Positions 4,588 through 57,032 of a stretch of 64,000 bases of DNA are shown one piece after another. The DNA is from Escherichia coli (GTDB lineage Bacteria; Pseudomonadota; Gammaproteobacteria; Enterobacterales; Enterobacteriaceae): NCBI RefSeq assembly GCF_002854065.1, contig NZ_CP024147.1. One strand, 5' to 3'. Position 1 is the first letter of the stretch, and each line of letters starts with the position of its first letter. The position numbers and the translations under genes are program-made. The notes below the pieces were generated by a model that did not search any database, was not told the origin of the DNA, and saw nothing but the letters and a program-made list of their open reading frames with translations.

Positions 4588-6909
4588 ATGAAAAAATTAA
4601 CCATAGGCTTAATTGGTAATCCAAATTCTGGCAAGACAACCTTATTTAACCAGCTCACTGGCGCACGTCAGCGTGTAGGTAACTGGGCTGGCGTTACCGT
4701 CGAACGTAAAGAAGGGCAATTCTCCACCACCGATCATCAGGTCACGCTGGTGGACCTGCCCGGCACCTATTCTCTGACCACCATCTCATCGCAGACCTCG
4801 CTCGATGAGCAAATCGCCTGTCACTACATTTTGAGTGGCGACGCCGACCTGCTGATTAACGTGGTGGATGCGTCTAACCTTGAGCGTAACCTGTACCTGA
4901 CGCTACAACTGCTGGAACTCGGCATTCCCTGCATCGTGGCACTGAACATGCTCGACATTGCCGAGAAGCAAAATATTCGTATTGAAATTGATGCTCTGTC
5001 GGCGCGTCTTGGCTGCCCGGTGATCCCGCTGGTTTCAACCCGTGGTCGCGGTATTGAAGCGCTCAAGCTGGCGATTGATCGCTATAAAGCTAACGAGAAT
5101 GTGGAACTGGTGCATTACGCACAGCCGCTGCTCAACGAAGCAGATTCACTGGCAAAAGTGATGCCTTCCGACATCCCGCTGAAACAACGTCGCTGGCTGG
5201 GCCTGCAAATGCTGGAAGGCGATATCTACAGCCGCGCCTACGCCGGTGAAGCGTCGCAGCATCTTGATGCCGCCCTCGCCCGTCTGCGTAATGAGATGGA
5301 CGATCCGGCGCTGCACATTGCCGATGCGCGTTACCAGTGCATTGCTGCCATCTGTGATGTGGTAAGCAACACCCTGACGGCAGAACCCAGCCGTTTCACC
5401 ACTGCGGTAGATAAAATCGTGCTCAACCGTTTCCTCGGTCTGCCGATTTTCCTCTTTGTGATGTACCTGATGTTCCTGCTGGCTATCAACATCGGCGGGG
5501 CGTTACAGCCGCTGTTTGACGTCGGCTCCGTGGCGCTATTTGTGCATGGTATTCAATGGATTGGCTACACGCTCCACTTCCCGGACTGGCTGACTATCTT
5601 CCTCGCCCAGGGCTTGGGTGGCGGTATTAACACCGTGCTGCCACTGGTGCCGCAGATCGGCATGATGTACCTGTTCCTCTCCTTCCTTGAGGACTCCGGC
5701 TATATGGCGCGTGCAGCGTTTGTGATGGACCGCCTGATGCAGGCGCTGGGCTTGCCGGGGAAATCCTTTGTGCCGCTGATCGTCGGTTTCGGTTGTAACG
5801 TACCGTCGGTAATGGGTGCACGTACACTTGATGCACCGCGTGAACGTCTGATGACCATCATGATGGCACCGTTTATGTCCTGCGGCGCGCGTCTGGCTAT
5901 CTTCGCAGTATTCGCGGCTGCCTTCTTCGGGCAGAACGGTGCGCTGGCGGTCTTCTCGCTGTATATGCTCGGTATCGTGATGGCGGTGCTGACTGGCCTG
6001 ATGCTCAAGTACACCATCATGCGCGGTGAAGCGACGCCGTTTGTCATGGAGCTGCCGGTCTACCATGTACCACACGTTAAAAGCCTGATTATCCAGACCT
6101 GGCAGCGTCTGAAAGGCTTCGTTCTGCGTGCTGGTAAAGTGATTATCATCGTCAGCATTTTCCTGAGCGCTTTCAACAGCTTCTCGTTGAGCGGGAAAAT
6201 CGTCGATAACATCAACGACTCGGCGCTGGCTTCCGTCAGCCGGGTGATCACCCCGGTCTTCAAGCCGATTGGCGTGCATGAAGATAACTGGCAGGCAACA
6301 GTTGGCCTGTTTACGGGTGCAATGGCGAAAGAAGTGGTGGTGGGTACGCTCAACACCCTCTACACCGCAGAAAATATTCAGGACGAAGAGTTCAATCCGG
6401 CGGAATTTAACCTCGGTGAAGAGTTGTTCAGCGCGGTAGATGAAACCTGGCAGAGCCTGAAGGACACCTTCAGCCTTAGCGTACTGATGAACCCCATTGA
6501 AGCTAGCAAAGGCGACGGCGAAATGGGTACCGGGGCGATGGGCGTGATGGATCAGAAATTCGGTAGCGCAGCTGCCGCATACAGCTACCTGATTTTCGTC
6601 CTGCTGTATGTACCGTGCATCTCGGTGATGGGAGCCATCGCCCGTGAATCAAGCCGTGGCTGGATGGGCTTCTCCATCCTGTGGGGGCTGAATATCGCTT
6701 ACTCACTGGCAACATTGTTCTATCAGATCGCCAGCTACAGTCAGCACCCAACTTACAGCCTGGTGTGCATTCTGGCGGTTATCCTGTTTAACATCGTGGT
6801 TATCGGTCTGCTGCGCCGCGCGCGTAGCCGGGTGGATATCGAACTGCTGGCAACCCGTAAGTCGGTAAGCAGTTGCTGCGCAGCCAGCACCACCGGTGAT
6901 TGCCATTAA
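4588..6909 (+). CDS. feoB: Ferrous iron transporter FeoB (773 aa), N-terminal G-domain plus polytopic membrane domain
   Basis: ORF 4576..6909; start set at [21 protein letters not shown] (G1 P-loop motif). Confidence 0.96.
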
Positions 6910-17192: not shown

Positions 17193-19904
<2,712 letters not shown>

Positions 19905-19964
19905 GTTTGTATAGCGTTTTTATGTACACTCTTTATACTGTATATAAAATCGCACTACAGGCTC

Positions 19965-20249
19965 ATGAATATGAAACCGGAAAGCAAAGAAGCGCCAATC
20001 AATATCAGAGCGAAAGCCTCACAGCGTGACCTGATTGATATGGCAGCGAATCTGGTCGCAAAATCGCGCACTGATTTTATGCTGGATGCCGCATGCCGTG
20101 AAGCGCAAGACATCTTATTAGATCAACGACTATTCATCCTTGATGACGAGCAATACGATGCGTTTCTCGCTGCCCTGGACGCCCCCATCACTGCTGAGCG
20201 TCAGGCCAAAATTAACGCGTTGATGAATCGTAAATCGCCATGGGAATAA
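19965..20249 (+). CDS. DUF1778 (ribbon-helix-helix) antitoxin of a GNAT-type type II TA pair (94 aa; TacA/AtaR/KacA-like)
   Basis: MNMKPESKEAPINIRAKASQRDLIDMAANLVAKSRTDFMLDAACREAQDILLDQRLFILDDEQYDAFLAALDAP... fits the DUF1778 pattern; 3' end overlaps the next ORF by 10 nt. Confidence 0.7.
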   Translation: MNMKPESKEAPINIRAKASQRDLIDMAANLVAKSRTDFMLDAACREAQDILLDQRLFILDDEQYDAFLAALDAPITAERQAKINALMNRKSPWE

Positions 20250-20725
20250 CGGCTCCTACTCCCCTAACGTCTGAACATAATCTGGCTGACTTTTGCTGTT
20301 CCGATCACGGGATGAATGAATGGCTAAAAAAGAAAGCATTAAAAAATCACAGCTCCGGTCTGTCTCGTGTTTACGTTATCTGTATTGCCAATACCCGCCA
20401 GGTAATCGGCTATTACTGCCTTTCTACAGGCAGTATTCAACGTAATTTGGCCCCTGGAGCCATGCGACGTAATGCTCCCGAATCGTTGCCTGTTGTCGTA
20501 TTAGGCAGACTGGCAATTGATCAAGCCTGAGCAGGTAAAGGGTTGGGCGTCGCATTGTTGAAAGATGCAGTCTATCGCACAATGTCCATAGCTCAACAGG
20601 TAGGGGTTCGTGCGCTCATTGTTCATGCCTTAGACGATTCAGTACGCAATTTCTATCTGAAGTATGCCTTTGTACCTTCACCATTCCAGTCACTTACCTT
20701 ACTGTATCCCATTACTCTGGAGTAA
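20240..20725 (+). pseudogene. GNAT-family acetyltransferase toxin (TacT/AtaT/KacT-like) interrupted by an in-frame TGA at 20528..20530
   Basis: ORFs 20240..20530 and 20543..20725 are in the same frame; translation ...PLTSEHNLADFCCSDHGMNEWL...VVLGRLAIDQA*AGKGLGVALLKDAV... carries the GNAT acetyl-CoA motif split by the stop. Confidence 0.7.
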
Positions 20726-20774
20726 TTTACCTCTACCGGATAGTCACACTGATGAGTCTGATCCGGGAGGGATT

Positions 20775-21806
<1,032 letters not shown>

Positions 21807-23033
21807 TTATCCTTTTACGCACACCACCTGACGCAGGGTGTAGATAACTTCCACCAGATCGCTTTGTGCCGCCATCACCGCATCAATATCTTTATACGCC
21901 ATCGGGATTTCGTCGATCACTTCGGCATCTTTACGGCATTCCACATGCGCGGTAGCACGAATTTGATCTTCCACGCTGAACAGTTTTTTCGCTTTAGTAC
22001 GGCTCATTACCCGCCCGGCACCGTGGCTGCATGAACAGAACGACTCTTCATTTCCCAGCCCACGGACGATAAAGCTTTTCGCTCCCATCGACCCTGGAAT
22101 AATTCCATATTGACCAGCACGCGCAGACACCGCGCCTTTACGCGTCACGTAGATCTCTTCACCAAAGTGCTGTTCTTTTTGCACATAGTTGTGGTGACAG
22201 TTGATCTCTTCCATCGCCAGCGTTTGTGGCTGTCTGACCGTTTTCTGCGTAATGCTCTGCAACGCCGTTACTACGTTTTCCATCATCGCATCGCGGTTAA
22301 GGCTGGCAAAAAGCTGCGCCCAGGCCACGGCTTTCAGGTAATCATCAAAGTATTCCGTACCTTCCATAAAGTACGCCAGATCACGCGACGGCAATGTTTC
22401 AAGCGTTTCCTGCATCTCTTTTTGCGCCAGATCGATAAAGTAAGTCCCGATGGCATTACCAATTCCGCGTGAACCGGAGTGCAGCATAATCCACACCTGG
22501 TCCGACTCATCAAGGCAGATTTCAATAAAGTGGTTACCCGTTCCCAGCGTTCCCAGGTGTTTATAGTTGTTAGTGTTAAGGAAACGCGGATATTTTTGCG
22601 TTAACCACTGATAACCGGCCTCCAGCTCAGCCCATTTCGCATCGACGTTAACAGGCGGGTTTTCCCATGCGCCTTTATCACGTTTACAACGTCCGGTAGT
22701 ACGCCCGTGCGGCACGGCCGTTTCAATCGCCTGACGCAGCTCCGCCAGGTTTTCAGGCAGATCTGCCGCCGTTAACGCGGTACGCAGCGCGTTCATTCCA
22801 CAGCCAATATCCACGCCCACCGCCGCCGGAATAATCGCCCCTTTGGTCGGGATCACGCTACCAATGGTGGAACCTTTACCCAGGTGTACATCAGGCATTA
22901 CCGCAATATGTTTGAAAATAAACGGCATCTTCGCCGTATTAATAAGTTGCTGACGCGCATCGGCTTCTACCGGCACGCCTTTGGTCCACATTTTTACCGG
23001 GGCATTTTCAGTGGTCAGTAATTCGTAATTCAT
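21807..23033 (-). CDS. rtcB: RNA-splicing ligase RtcB (408 aa)
   Basis: 408-aa ORF MNYELLTTENAPVKMWTKGVPVEADARQQ... Confidence 0.96.
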   Translation of the reverse strand: MNYELLTTENAPVKMWTKGVPVEADARQQLINTAKMPFIFKHIAVMPDVHLGKGSTIGSVIPTKGAIIPAAVGVDIGCGMNALRTALTAADLPENLAELRQAIETAVPHGRTTGRCKRDKGAWENPPVNVDAKWAELEAGYQWLTQKYPRFLNTNNYKHLGTLGTGNHFIEICLDESDQVWIMLHSGSRGIGNAIGTYFIDLAQKEMQETLETLPSRDLAYFMEGTEYFDDYLKAVAWAQLFASLNRDAMMENVVTALQSITQKTVRQPQTLAMEEINCHHNYVQKEQHFGEEIYVTRKGAVSARAGQYGIIPGSMGAKSFIVRGLGNEESFCSCSHGAGRVMSRTKAKKLFSVEDQIRATAHVECRKDAEVIDEIPMAYKDIDAVMAAQSDLVEVIYTLRQVVCVKG

Positions 23034-23069
23034 TTTGTTTTTCTCTTTTCGTTGGTATGTCCTGATAAT

Positions 23070-23086
23070 TGCAACCGTCGTGCCAG
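23070..23086 (-). promoter_or_regulatory. Sigma-54 (-24/-12) promoter of rtcBA
   Basis: Minus-strand sequence CTGGCACgacggTTGCA matches TGGCAC-N5-TTGCA, about 35 bp upstream of the rtcB ATG and next to divergent rtcR. Confidence 0.8.
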
Positions 23087-23219
23087 AAAATTAAATAAGC
23101 AGATTAATTTTTTAATTCATTGTTTTAAAAAAGATTATATCTTTACGTCCGTAACCGGAGATTTCCCGCAAAGCCGATTTACCGATAATGAAATATCGTC
23201 TTTTATAAGGATATCTAAG

Positions 23220-24818
23220 ATGCGTAAAACAGTGGCTTTTGGCTTTGTCGGAACGGTGCTGGATTATGCCGGGCGCGGCAGTCAGCGCTGGTCGAAATGG
23301 CGTCCGACGCTTTGTTTATGCCAGCAAGAATCGTTGGTCATCGATCGACTGGAATTATTGCATGACGCCCGCTCGCGCTCGCTATTTGAAACGCTTAAAC
23401 GCGATATCGCCAGCGTTTCGCCAGAAACAGAAGTGGTGAGCGTTGAGATTGAACTGCATAACCCGTGGGATTTCGAAGAGGTTTACGCCTGCCTGCATGA
23501 TTTCGCCCGTGGTTACGAGTTTCAACCAGAAAAAGAAGACTATTTAATTCACATCACCACCGGCACCCACGTCGCGCAGATTTGCTGGTTTCTGCTGGCG
23601 GAAGCGCGTTATCTACCCGCCCGGTTGATACAATCTTCACCTCCGCGCAAAAAAGAACAACCGCGCGGCTCAGGTGAAGTGACGATTATCGATCTCGATC
23701 TAAGCCGTTATAACGCCATCGCCAGCCGCTTTGCCGAGGAACGCCAGCAAACGCTTGATTTTCTTAAGTCCGGCATTGCCACGCGTAACCCCCACTTCAA
23801 CCGCATGATTGAGCAGGTTGAAAAAGTGGCGATTAAATCCCGCGCACCGATCCTGCTTAACGGCCCGACCGGTGCGGGTAAGTCGTTTCTGGCACGACGC
23901 ATTTTCGAATTAAAACAGGCGCGGCATCAGTTTAGCGGCGCGTTTGTGGAAGTGAACTGCGCCACCTTGCGTGGCGATACCGCCATGTCGACGCTGTTTG
24001 GTCATGTAAAAGGCGCGTTTACCGGGGCGCGGGAATCCCGTGAAGGATTATTACGTAGCGCCAACGGTGGAATGTTGTTTCTTGATGAGATTGGCGAACT
24101 GGGCGCAGACGAACAGGCAATGCTGCTGAAAGCCATTGAAGAGAAAAACTTTTACCCGTTTGGCAGCGATCGCCAGGTGAGCAGTGATTTTCAGCTCATC
24201 GCCGGAACGGTGCGCGATTTACGCCAGCTGGTTGCCGATGGCAAATTCCGCGAAGATCTATACGCGCGGATCAATCTCTGGACCTTCACCCTGCCGGGGC
24301 TACGCCAGCGTCAGGAAGATATTGAACCTAACCTGGATTATGAAGTGGAGCGCCACGCTTCACTCACCGGCGACAGCGTGCGTTTTAACACCGAAGCGCG
24401 GCGCGCCTGGCTGGCCTTTGCGACATCTCCCCAGGCAACATGGCGCGGTAACTTTCGCGAGCTTTCTGCCAGCGTCACGCGAATGGCAACCTTTGCCTCT
24501 AGCGGACGCATTACTCTGGACGTGGTTGAAGATGAGATAAACCGTCTGCGCTATAACTGGCAGGAGAGCCGCCCCTCCGCGCTTACGGCGTTGCTGGGCG
24601 CAGAGGCAGAAAACATCGATCTCTTCGACCGTATGCAACTGGAACACGTTATCGCTATCTGCCGCCAGGCAAAGTCGCTTTCCGCAGCCGGACGCCAGCT
24701 TTTTGACGTTTCGCGCCAGGGCAAAGCCAGCGTCAATGACGCGGATCGGCTACGCAAATACCTGGCGCGTTTTGGTCTGACGTGGGAAGCATTGCAGGAT
24801 CAGCACAGCTCCAGTTGA
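23220..24818 (+). CDS. rtcR: Sigma-54-dependent activator RtcR (532 aa)
   Basis: ORF 23052..24818; start set at [20 protein letters not shown]; AAA+ motifs GPTGAGKS and GAFTGA; 3' end overlaps glpR by 19 bp. Confidence 0.93.
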
Positions 24819-28533: not shown

Positions 28534-28632
28534 TGCCTGATGCGCTACGCTTATCAGGCCTACGTGGTTTATGCAATATGTTGAATTTGCATGATTTTGT
28601 AGGCCTGAGAAGGCGTTCACGCCGCATCAGGA
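28534..28632. repeat. Pair of inverted REP elements (BIME-like) downstream of glpD
   Basis: tgcctgatgcgctacgcttatcaggcctacg and gtaggcctgagaaggcgttcacgccgcatcagg match REP consensus in opposite orientations. Confidence 0.7.
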
Positions 28633-34403: not shown

Positions 34404-35837
34404 CTATTTCAAGCGATAGTAAAGCTCACGGTACGACTTCGCCGCGACCTGCCAGCTAAAATCCATTGCCATAGCCTGACGTTGCACAAACCGCCACAGT
34501 GAAGGACGGGACCACAGTACAAAAGCACGTCGAATAGCCCGTAACAGCGACCAGGCATTACTATCTTCAAAGACAAACCCACTGGCGACGCCATCTGCAA
34601 GGTTCTCAAGAGAACAGTCAGAAACCGTATCAGCAAGCCCACCGGTGCGCCGCACTAACGGCAGCGTACCGTACTTCAATCCATAAAGTTGCGTTAAGCC
34701 GCACGGTTCAAAACGGCTGGGCACCAGAATGACGTCCGCGCCGCCCATAATGCGATGCGAAAATGCTTCGTGATAGCCAATCTGAACGCCCACTTGGCCG
34801 GGGTATTCCGCTGCCGCCGCAAGGAAACCTTCCTGCAGCACCGGATCGCCCGCGCCGAGTAGCGCCAGCTGCCCGCCCTGCTCCAGAAGGCCCGGTAAGG
34901 CTTCCAGCACCAGGTCGAGACCTTTCTGGCTGGTCAGACGGCTCACCACTGCAAAAAGCGGCACTTTATCGTCAACCTTAAGCCCCATTGCGATTTGTAA
35001 CTGGCGCTTATTTTCCGCTTTATCTTCCAACGTATCGCGGGTGTAACGCGAGGCCAACAGTAAGTCCGTCTCTGGACTCCAGATTTTCTCGTCCACGCCG
35101 TTCAGTACGCCGGAAAGACGCCCTTCACGGTGACGCTGTTGCAACAGACCTTCCATACCGTAGGCAAACTGCGGTTCGGTGATCTCGCGAGCGTAGGTTG
35201 GACTGACCGCCGTAATGTGATCGGCATAGTACAGACCGGCCTTCAGGAAAGAGATTTGTCCGTTGAATTCCAGCCCATGAATATTAAAGAATGACCATGG
35301 CAATTGGATGTCATTCATGTGATGTGCATAAAACATGCCTTGATAGGCCAGGTTGTGCACAGTAAACACCGACTTCGCCGGACGCCCGCGCGCCGCCAGA
35401 TACGCAGGCGCAAGGCCTGCATGCCAGTCGTGCGCATGCACCACATCAGGACGCCAGAATGGGTCAAGCCCGCTGGCCATTTCTGCCCCAACCCACCCCA
35501 GCAGCGCAAAACGCAATACGTTGTCGGTATAGGCAAATAAGTTGGTATCGTGATACGGGCTTCCCGGACGATCATAGAGATGCGGCGCGTCAATCAGGTA
35601 TATGCCAACCCCGTTGTAATGACCGAACAACAGCGTGATATGCCCGGCAAAGGTATCACGACGGGATACTACCTGCGCATCGGTCACGCCACGGCGAATA
35701 TCGGGAAATGCAGGCAACAGTACGCGAGCGTCAACGCCGTCTGCGATTTGTGCTGCGGGTAATGCCCCAATAACATCAGCCAGACCGCCGGTTTTAAGCA
35801 GCGGGAACATCTCTGAACATACATGTAAAACCTGCAT
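34404..35837 (-). CDS. glgA: Glycogen synthase GlgA (477 aa)
   Basis: 477-aa [30 protein letters not shown]... Confidence 0.96.
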
Positions 35838-52047: not shown

Positions 52048-52169
52048 GATTTCGTCCTTTTTAAGGTGGTTATTTACACCTTAGCGCAAAGCGGACGTGG
52101 TTCCTACTGGAGTGCGCATAACGAACACAAGCACTTCCCGAGGATAAATTGAGAACGAAAGATCAAAAA

Positions 52170-52259
52170 AAAAGCCAGCACCCGGCTGGCTAAGTAATAC
52201 TGGAAGCAATGTGAGCAATGTCGTGCTTTCAGGTTCTCCGCGAGGGTCTTCCTGATCGC
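52170..52259 (-). ncRNA. ryhB: Iron-responsive small RNA RyhB (90 nt)
   Basis: Minus-strand GCGATCAGGAAGACCCTCGCGGAGAACCTGAAAGCACGACATTGCTCACATTGCTTCCAGTATTACTTAGCCAGCCGGGTGCTGGCTTTT matches RyhB as I recall it, with the terminator hairpin plus T-run. Confidence 0.9.
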
Positions 52260-55965: not shown

Positions 55966-57032
55966 ACTCGTTGTCCTGTTTCACCATCAAAAAGATGCAG
56001 CTGATTTTCCGCCAGATGCAGCCACAGCGTGCTGCCTGCCGTCGGGCGCTCCTGATGCGCCAGTCGCACCACCAGCTTCTGTTCGCCCCAGCGTCCGTGC
56101 GCCAGGTTATCTGCGCCGAGGATCTCCAGCGTGTCCATCACCAGCGGTACGCCGCCTTCTGCCTGCGAGCTTAGCGCAATATGTTCCGGGCGAATGCCGA
56201 GAGTCATTTTACGCCCGGCATACTGACGGTAGCCACCGTTTAGCGGTAGCACGATACCGCCGTCCAGTTCAAAATGCGTGCCTTCATTATTCACGCGGCC
56301 TGTCAGCAGATTCATCGCCGGACTGCCAATAAAACTCGCCACAAACAGGCTGGCGGGCTTTTCGTAGACTTCAACTGGCGTGCCAATCTGTTCGGCAACG
56401 CCGCCGTTCATCACCATTACTCGCTGGGCGAGCGTCATCGCCTCAACCTGATCGTGAGTAACGTAGAGTGATGTCGTTTTCAGGCGACGGTGCAGCTGTT
56501 GCAGTTCAAGACGCATCTGTACGCGCAGCTTGGCATCGAGGTTAGAGAGTGGCTCATCAAACAGGAACACCGCCGGATCGCGCACAATCGCGCGGCCCAT
56601 CGCCACACGCTGACGCTGACCGCCGGAAAGCTCGCGCGGGCGGCGCTTAAGCAGACCGTCCAGTTCCAGAATGCGCGCCGCCTCTTTAACGCGCTCGGCA
56701 ATTTGCTGCTTGCCCATGCCGCGAATTTTCAGCCCCCACGCCATGTTTTCTTCAACACTCATATGCGGATAAAGCGCGTAGTTCTGGAACACCATCGCAA
56801 TCCCGCGATCTTTCGGCTCCATTTCGGTCACCCGCTGGTCGTTGATCCAGATATCGCCTTCCGTCACCCGCTCCAGCCCGGCAACCATGCGCAGCAGCGT
56901 CGATTTCCCGCAGCCTGACGGCCCGACCATCACGATAAATTCGCCATCCGCCACATCAAGGGTCAGCGGTTTAATCACCTGGGTTTTGCCATCCCAGCTT
57001 TTGGTTACTGCCTGTAATTTCAGTCCTGCCAT
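55962..57032 (-). CDS. ugpC: sn-glycerol-3-phosphate ABC transporter ATPase UgpC (356 aa)
   Basis: ORF 55962..57071; start set at [20 protein letters not shown]; Walker [10 protein letters not shown], signature LSGGQRQR. Confidence 0.95.

Follow-up and report, generated by a model that had tools for sequence, protein, structure and literature searches.

The sigma-54 promoter of the rtcBA RNA-repair operon in an Escherichia coli genome, and a candidate enhancer for its activator RtcR

The literature ties Rtc RNA repair to tRNA damage and to how well cells tolerate antibiotics that target the ribosome. The question raised by the short region between rtcB and rtcR in a 64,000-nucleotide stretch of E. 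coli chromosome, contig NZ_CP024147.1 (the window, hereafter) is whether it holds the sigma-54 (RpoN) dependent promoter of the rtcBA RNA-repair operon, as had been proposed in a preliminary description made from the sequence, and which elements accompany that promoter. The genes on which the question depends are listed below.

17199-19904, plus strand: malT
20775-21803, minus strand: rtcA, RNA 3'-phosphate cyclase, 342 aa (NCBIfam equivalog NF003247, 771 bits against a cut-off of 333; annotation)
21807-23033, minus strand: rtcB, RNA ligase, 408 aa (PF01139, 446 bits against a cut-off of 27; annotated rtcB in identical genomes)
23220-24818, plus strand: rtcR, sigma-54 enhancer-binding activator with a CARF-type N-terminal domain, 532 aa (NCBIfam equivalog NF038308, 850 bits against a cut-off of 650)

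The earlier calls of rtcA, rtcB and rtcR as the RNA-repair operon and its regulator are borne out, since all three pass their family models and the order malT / rtcA / rtcB / rtcR / glpR is that of K-12. The three genes are full length, rtcBA is divergent from rtcR, and rtcA starts 3 nt past the rtcB stop. At its N terminus RtcR has its specific domain PF06956, after which comes the sigma-54 interaction (AAA+) domain PF00158 (172 bits). The gap between the ATG of rtcB (23033) and that of rtcR (23220) is exactly 23034..23219, which amounts to 186 bp with 28% G+C. When a 701-bp query around the site was compared with 5426 complete E. coli genomes, matches were obtained in 4857, always beneath annotated rtcB and rtcR. 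About 570 of the 5426 remain unmatched over the rtcB-rtcR region; not every E. coli therefore has the locus. The gap is unusually polymorphic within the species (in more than half of the genomes its identity with the window is no higher than 90-95%), and the allele of the window is a minority one, with only about 50 genomes at least 99% identical to it. An Rfam scan of the whole window placed no RNA family within or near the gap; above the gathering score it gave the RyhB sRNA (52166-52230, minus strand, 83 bits) and the ES036/CssrF sRNA (28556-28598, minus strand, 39 bits), which are ordinary E. coli features.

The elements discussed for the gap itself are the following, of which the start, the IHF-like site and the enhancer are predictions.

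23034..23058, minus strand: remainder of the predicted 26-nt rtcB leader, unlike K-12 at +3..+8 and 2 nt shorter
23059, minus strand: predicted transcription start, +1 = C (the A at 23060 being -1)
23070..23086, minus strand: sigma-54 (-24/-12) promoter element of rtcBA, CTGGCACGACGGTTGCA
23113-23125, minus strand: IHF-like site AAACAATGAATTA, one mismatch to WATCAANNNNTTR, centred at -60 (sequence match)
23183-23198, unstranded: dyad CGATA-N6-TATCG, candidate RtcR enhancer (UAS), from conservation

On the minus strand, CTGGCACGACGGTTGCA runs from 23086 to 23070 inside the 186-bp gap and is composed of TGGCAC (23085-23080), the spacer GACGG and TTGCA (23074-23070), with the GG (23084-23083) and GC (23072-23071) doublets one helical turn apart; read in this way, the coordinates, strand and spacing given in the preliminary description are all correct. 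The site satisfies all specified positions of the longer consensus YTGGCACGR-N3-TTGCW, and it is the sole exact match to TGGCAC-N5-TTGCW in the 64-kb window, for which 0.11 are expected. With two mismatches allowed, 43 matches were found against 45 expected, which means that only near-perfect sigma-54 matches are informative. The weight-matrix scan that had been suggested as a check was carried out with a matrix derived from the intergenic-sense ChIP-seq sites for sigma-54 in E. coli K-12, 41 in number once rtcB had been left out. Over both strands (about 128,000 positions) the rtcBA site ranks first in the window with 17.23 bits, compared with 13.93 for the runner-up and a median of 15.97 for the 41 training sites.

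These numbers have to be read with care, as a site of at least 17.23 bits is also contained in 44 of 200 random 64-kb sequences (about 22%), and the score alone is therefore not decisive. Together with the 0.11 exact consensus matches expected per window, this is what can be said for the motif being a chance match that is functionless in the window strain. The evidential weight comes instead from the placement: the motif adjoins the gene of an enhancer-binding protein, and lies in the sole 186-bp divergent gap, and on the sole strand, where a promoter of the operon must be.

The remaining matrix hits are of a different standing. The second-best (56370-56386, minus strand, TTGGCACGCCAGTTGAA, 13.9 bits) and the third-best (19522-19538, minus strand, within malT, CTGGCGCAGTTGTTGCG, 13.6 bits) are absent from the published ChIP-seq tables searched, and are for this reason probably due to chance. 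Two further sites in the window are published intragenic sigma-54 ChIP-seq sites, namely IS43 in glgA (enrichment 49; AAGGCATGTTTTATGCA, 35325-35341, minus strand, 13.0 bits) and IS42 in feoB (GTGGCACTGAACATGCT, 4936-4952, plus strand, 12.6 bits). A match on the opposite strand at 23057-23073 (12.2 bits) was rejected as a chance overlap with the palindromic TTGCAA.

Comparison with rtcBp, the K-12 rtcBA promoter, was the other check suggested at the outset. From about -40 to +2, the 17-mer included, the sequence does not differ from that of K-12 MG1655, and the gaps align with 99% mean column identity; the motif is thus base for base the site bound by sigma-54 in vivo in K-12, which argues against a chance match. 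In K-12 this 17-mer corresponds to OS35, a sigma-54 peak in ChIP-seq (enrichment (FAT) 17, 28 nt from rtcB) and to an EcoCyc-confirmed promoter (PMC4591121), and the rtcB site appears in a table of known sigma-54 promoters (PMC2831329). When a reporter is driven by the 175 nt that precede the start codon of K-12 rtcB, its activity depends on RtcR (PMC5175333), and the operon has been described as both sigma-54- and RtcR-dependent, the native K-12 PrtcBA being reported as very weak in vitro, its consensus sequence notwithstanding (PMC9650030). The orthologous Salmonella sequence, TGGCACGCTGGTTGCAAT, located upstream of rsr, binds sigma-54 and has sigma-54-dependent activity (PMC3844500). The promoter of the Salmonella Typhimurium rsr-yrlBA-rtcBA operon (STM3521) is, like that of the window, an RtcR-controlled sigma-54 promoter of the TGGCACG-N4-GTTGCAA type, divergent from rtcR; in Salmonella rtcBA is preceded by rsr (Ro) and genes for Y RNA, whereas rtcB comes first in the window. 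In addition to the 17-mer and its flanks, K-12 and the window share the divergent rtcR, the IHF-like site and the upstream dyad. They differ by two single bases upstream (alignment columns 65 and 138, one of them at window position 23156), by the leader at +3..+8 (TACC in the window and GCAAAC in K-12, making leaders of 26 and 28 nt, respectively), and at the far end of the operon, where the window has an 889-bp ataRT2 segment between malT and rtcA. Genschik et al. are reported to have mapped the start in 1998, with TGGCA and TTGCA elements upstream of it, and to have demonstrated sigma-54 dependence by means of a truncated RtcR.

The motif is also retained well beyond E. coli. A single RtcR scan of species-representative genomes gave 16 RtcR loci, comprising those of four other Escherichia lineages, Klebsiella oxytoca, Intestinirhabdus, Superficieibacter, Iodobacter and Accumulibacter, as well as three Pseudomonas, a Calditrichia genome, Desulfobulbus, Desulfovibrio and Desulfogranum. 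In all 16, a -24/-12 motif is directed away from rtcR at a near-constant distance from its start codon (134 nt separate the motif from the divergent rtcR in the window); 12 of the motifs fit the strict pattern and 4 a relaxed one, such as TGGCATGTTTTCTGCT. An alignment of nine enterobacterial sequences from four genera has just two intergenic blocks that are kept. The first consists of TCTGGCACG-N4-GTTGCAA together with the CA at the predicted start, and the second adjoins rtcR and contains the dyad CGATA-N6-TATCG. Among eight divergent Escherichia alleles ATTTTCTGGCACGACGGTTGCAATTATCA is invariant, while the rest of the gap varies. The block GAAATCTCCGkTTACGGAC was set aside as uninformative, being conserved only within Escherichia. 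With the motif invariant amid varying intergenic bases and conserved across genera, and given its position and its identity with K-12, we consider that a functionless chance match, judged on these comparisons, is excluded in practice and deserves next to no credence.

Two observations were made on the genes that follow the motif in these other loci. In K. oxytoca, Intestinirhabdus, Superficieibacter and the Calditrichia genome the first gene past the promoter is not rtcB, and appears Ro/Rsr-like by eye. In Desulfogranum japonicum (L017) about 240 nt separate the sigma-54 motif from the rtcB start, and this stretch includes visibly self-complementary sequences such as CCTGTAACTGGTTACAGG; the long leader could contain a small structured RNA, for example a Y-RNA-like element.

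A different objection is that the motif is a rarely or never productive sigma-54 site, and that rtcBA is mainly transcribed from another promoter in the gap, for example of the sigma-70 type. Many E. coli sigma-54 ChIP sites are indeed not known to drive transcription (PMC4591121), and the weakness of the native promoter in vitro points the same way, as does the discussion of 'alternative promoters' for RtcR-independent induction (PMC9650030). Some RtcB persists without RtcR, which likewise favours another rtcBA promoter, and induction independent of RtcR has been reported (PMC9650030, PMC5175333), so that the sigma-54 promoter need not be the only one of the operon. However, a consensus scan of 22950-23300 on both strands for sigma-70 promoters and terminators found neither, and gave no promoter for rtcR; reporter activity depends on RtcR for the K-12 fragment (PMC5175333) and on sigma-54 for the Salmonella promoter (PMC3844500); and the motif is retained beside rtcR across several phyla. 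We therefore hold it very improbable that the motif is unproductive and rtcBA served mainly from elsewhere. Considering the identity with K-12, the conservation across genera and the gene calls, the site is almost certainly the RpoN-dependent promoter of the rtcBA operon, next to the gene of its activator, in agreement with the preliminary description. This promoter is already known, and it is intact and ordinary in the window: the strain keeps a wild-type control region for Rtc RNA repair, which is useful for annotation and is no discovery.

The predicted transcription start is the C at 23059, which the -12 GC precedes by 12 nt. The dinucleotide ApC has been used as a -1/+1 primer on native PrtcBA (PMC9650030), and it fits the sequence GGACA at 23062..23058. 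The same start implies a 28-nt leader in K-12, equal to the 28-nt distance to rtcB tabulated for that strain (PMC4591121). The CA at +1/+2 is kept across the four aligned enterobacterial genera, and in all Escherichia compared except O157 Z869, which has CC. By this prediction, transcription in the window strain would begin at 23059 and the rtcB leader would be 26 nt long. Both leader variants, that of the window and that of K-12, are present in several Escherichia lineages.

Upstream of the core, the IHF-like site agrees with PMC9650030, where an 'rtc IHF binding site' is mentioned. In Escherichia the site is centred at -60. Matches to WATCAANNNNTTR in promoter orientation and without mismatch occur at -61/-62 in Iodobacter, Accumulibacter and the three Pseudomonas, and at -50 there is a match in Superficieibacter (no mismatch) and in Klebsiella (one mismatch). 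The site at 23113-23125 may be used by IHF.

The dyad CGATA-N6-TATCG is the part of the gap for which the analysis goes beyond the literature searched, and the sole one. It is centred at about -131 from the predicted start, lies 22 nt ahead of the rtcR ATG, and occurs once in the 64-kb window, where 0.04 are expected. Its core GATA-N6-TATC is the most widely shared dyad among the gaps, being found in 5 of 13 non-redundant loci, a number reached in 0 of 300 shuffles but weakened by the relatedness of the four enterobacterial loci; the next most shared is TATC-N6-GATA (4 of 13). When single tetramers are counted over 12 loci, the 70 nt nearest the rtcR start contain GATA or TATC 36 times, where 9.9 ± 3.1 are expected and none of 2000 shuffles reached that number; the remainder of the same gaps has only 6. 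The enrichment persists when the set is reduced to 8 loci, and the tetramer starts are typically spaced by 10 nt. The dyad also falls within the 175-nt K-12 fragment that confers RtcR dependence (PMC5175333). On the grounds of its conservation, its rarity, the enrichment of the tetramers and its place in this fragment, we propose the dyad at 23183-23198 as the RtcR enhancer, and suggest more generally that from Enterobacteriaceae to Pseudomonas and the Desulfovibrio relatives the enhancer would consist of GATA/TATC half-sites, set in a 10-bp register and no farther than about 70 nt from the rtcR start; we put the chances of this assignment at about even. Neither the dyad sequence nor an RtcR footprint was found in any paper of the literature searched. 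In a 2016 review table of the enhancers of Salmonella activators, RtcR is entered as 'NK' (PMC4987338), and the half-site with its 10-bp register is unlike the enhancers tabulated there for the other activators. The UAS/IHF sequence of the hybrid promoter is not given in the supplement of PMC9650030. In one E. coli allele (AHB19) the left half-site reads GAGA instead of GATA. Another candidate for the enhancer, the inverted repeat 23163-23175 / 23241-23253 (GGCTTTGyGGGAA), was rejected because it is not kept in E. whittamii or beyond Escherichia.

Taken together, these elements suggest the following course of events. Sigma-54 RNA polymerase would bind the -24 GG and -12 GC at 23086..23070 in a closed complex unable to initiate unaided. 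RtcR would bind an upstream enhancer, here proposed to be the dyad, and a bend made by IHF at the AT-rich site centred at -60 would deliver it to the polymerase. A signal would relieve the RtcR CARF domain, ATP hydrolysis by the AAA+ domain would then open the complex, and transcription would proceed from C 23059 into rtcB and then rtcA. The first and last of these steps rest on the published K-12 and Salmonella work plus sequence identity; we infer the exact start in the window strain, the identity of the enhancer, the use of IHF and the autoregulation of rtcR. This last possibility is suggested by the position of the dyad, since RtcR bound 22 nt before the rtcR ATG would also cover its own leader or promoter. 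The layout would resemble that of nifH, pspA and glnH, which have a dyad about 100-150 bp upstream, IHF at about -60 and a -24/-12 core, but the dyad is here only 22 nt from the start codon of the activator itself, in contrast to other UAS / IHF / -24/-12 systems. The value added to what was known is modest, and consists of a testable candidate for the RtcR site and of an enhancer / IHF / promoter layout that would be conserved in distant bacteria.

An IS1 element was observed in the rtcB-rtcR gap of E. coli strain 720632 (NZ_CP025842.1; L026 1611-2465), at about window position 23141, where it separates the candidate enhancer dyad from the IHF-like site. The insertion would constitute a natural test of enhancer distance. 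In the same strain rtcA is frameshifted, and its Rtc system looks to be decaying.

The genes at the far end of the operon had been presented in the preliminary description as a new toxin-antitoxin pair, convergent with rtcA.

19971-20249, plus strand: ataR2, antitoxin of the TacA/DUF1778 type, 92 aa, glycine-free (PF08681, 70.8 bits; AtaR2 primer with 1 mismatch)
20240-20725, plus strand: ataT2, GNAT toxin gene inactivated by W97* (TGA at 20528-20530, G to A at 20530)

The orientation is as described, and the novelty does not stand: the pair has already been published as the module ataRT2 from E. coli O157:H7 Sakai (ECs4261-ECs4262), the toxin of which acetylates Gly-tRNA(Gly) and the antitoxin of which is glycine-free (PMC7470980). 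The published ataRT2 primers match exactly at 20240 and 20696-20725, and with one mismatch at 19971 (PMC7470980). The two genes overlap, and ataT2 is annotated as GNAT; once its reading frame is restored, the toxin sequence matches PDB chain 7f37_B with 357 bits. While the primer sites and the glycine-free antitoxin are shared with Sakai, the toxin gene of the window is prematurely stopped at codon 97 of 161 (TGA for TGG), so that its frame is not intact and ataR2, which is, has become an orphan antitoxin. The record is corrected accordingly: the toxin-antitoxin module beside rtcA is known, and disabled in the window strain.

The 889-bp ataRT2 segment covers window positions 19909-20797 and is present in 394 of the 5426 complete E. 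coli genomes. K-12 is without it, malT and rtcA being 42 nt apart there. Its right edge lies inside the 3' end of rtcA and alters the last few codons, which accounts for an RtcA of 342 aa whose C-terminal tail is unlike that of the 338-aa K-12 protein. Only one complete genome is 100% identical over the segment, that of CUWW06 (NZ_CP182139.1), from wastewater in Thailand, in the annotation of which ataT2 is a pseudogene with an internal stop.
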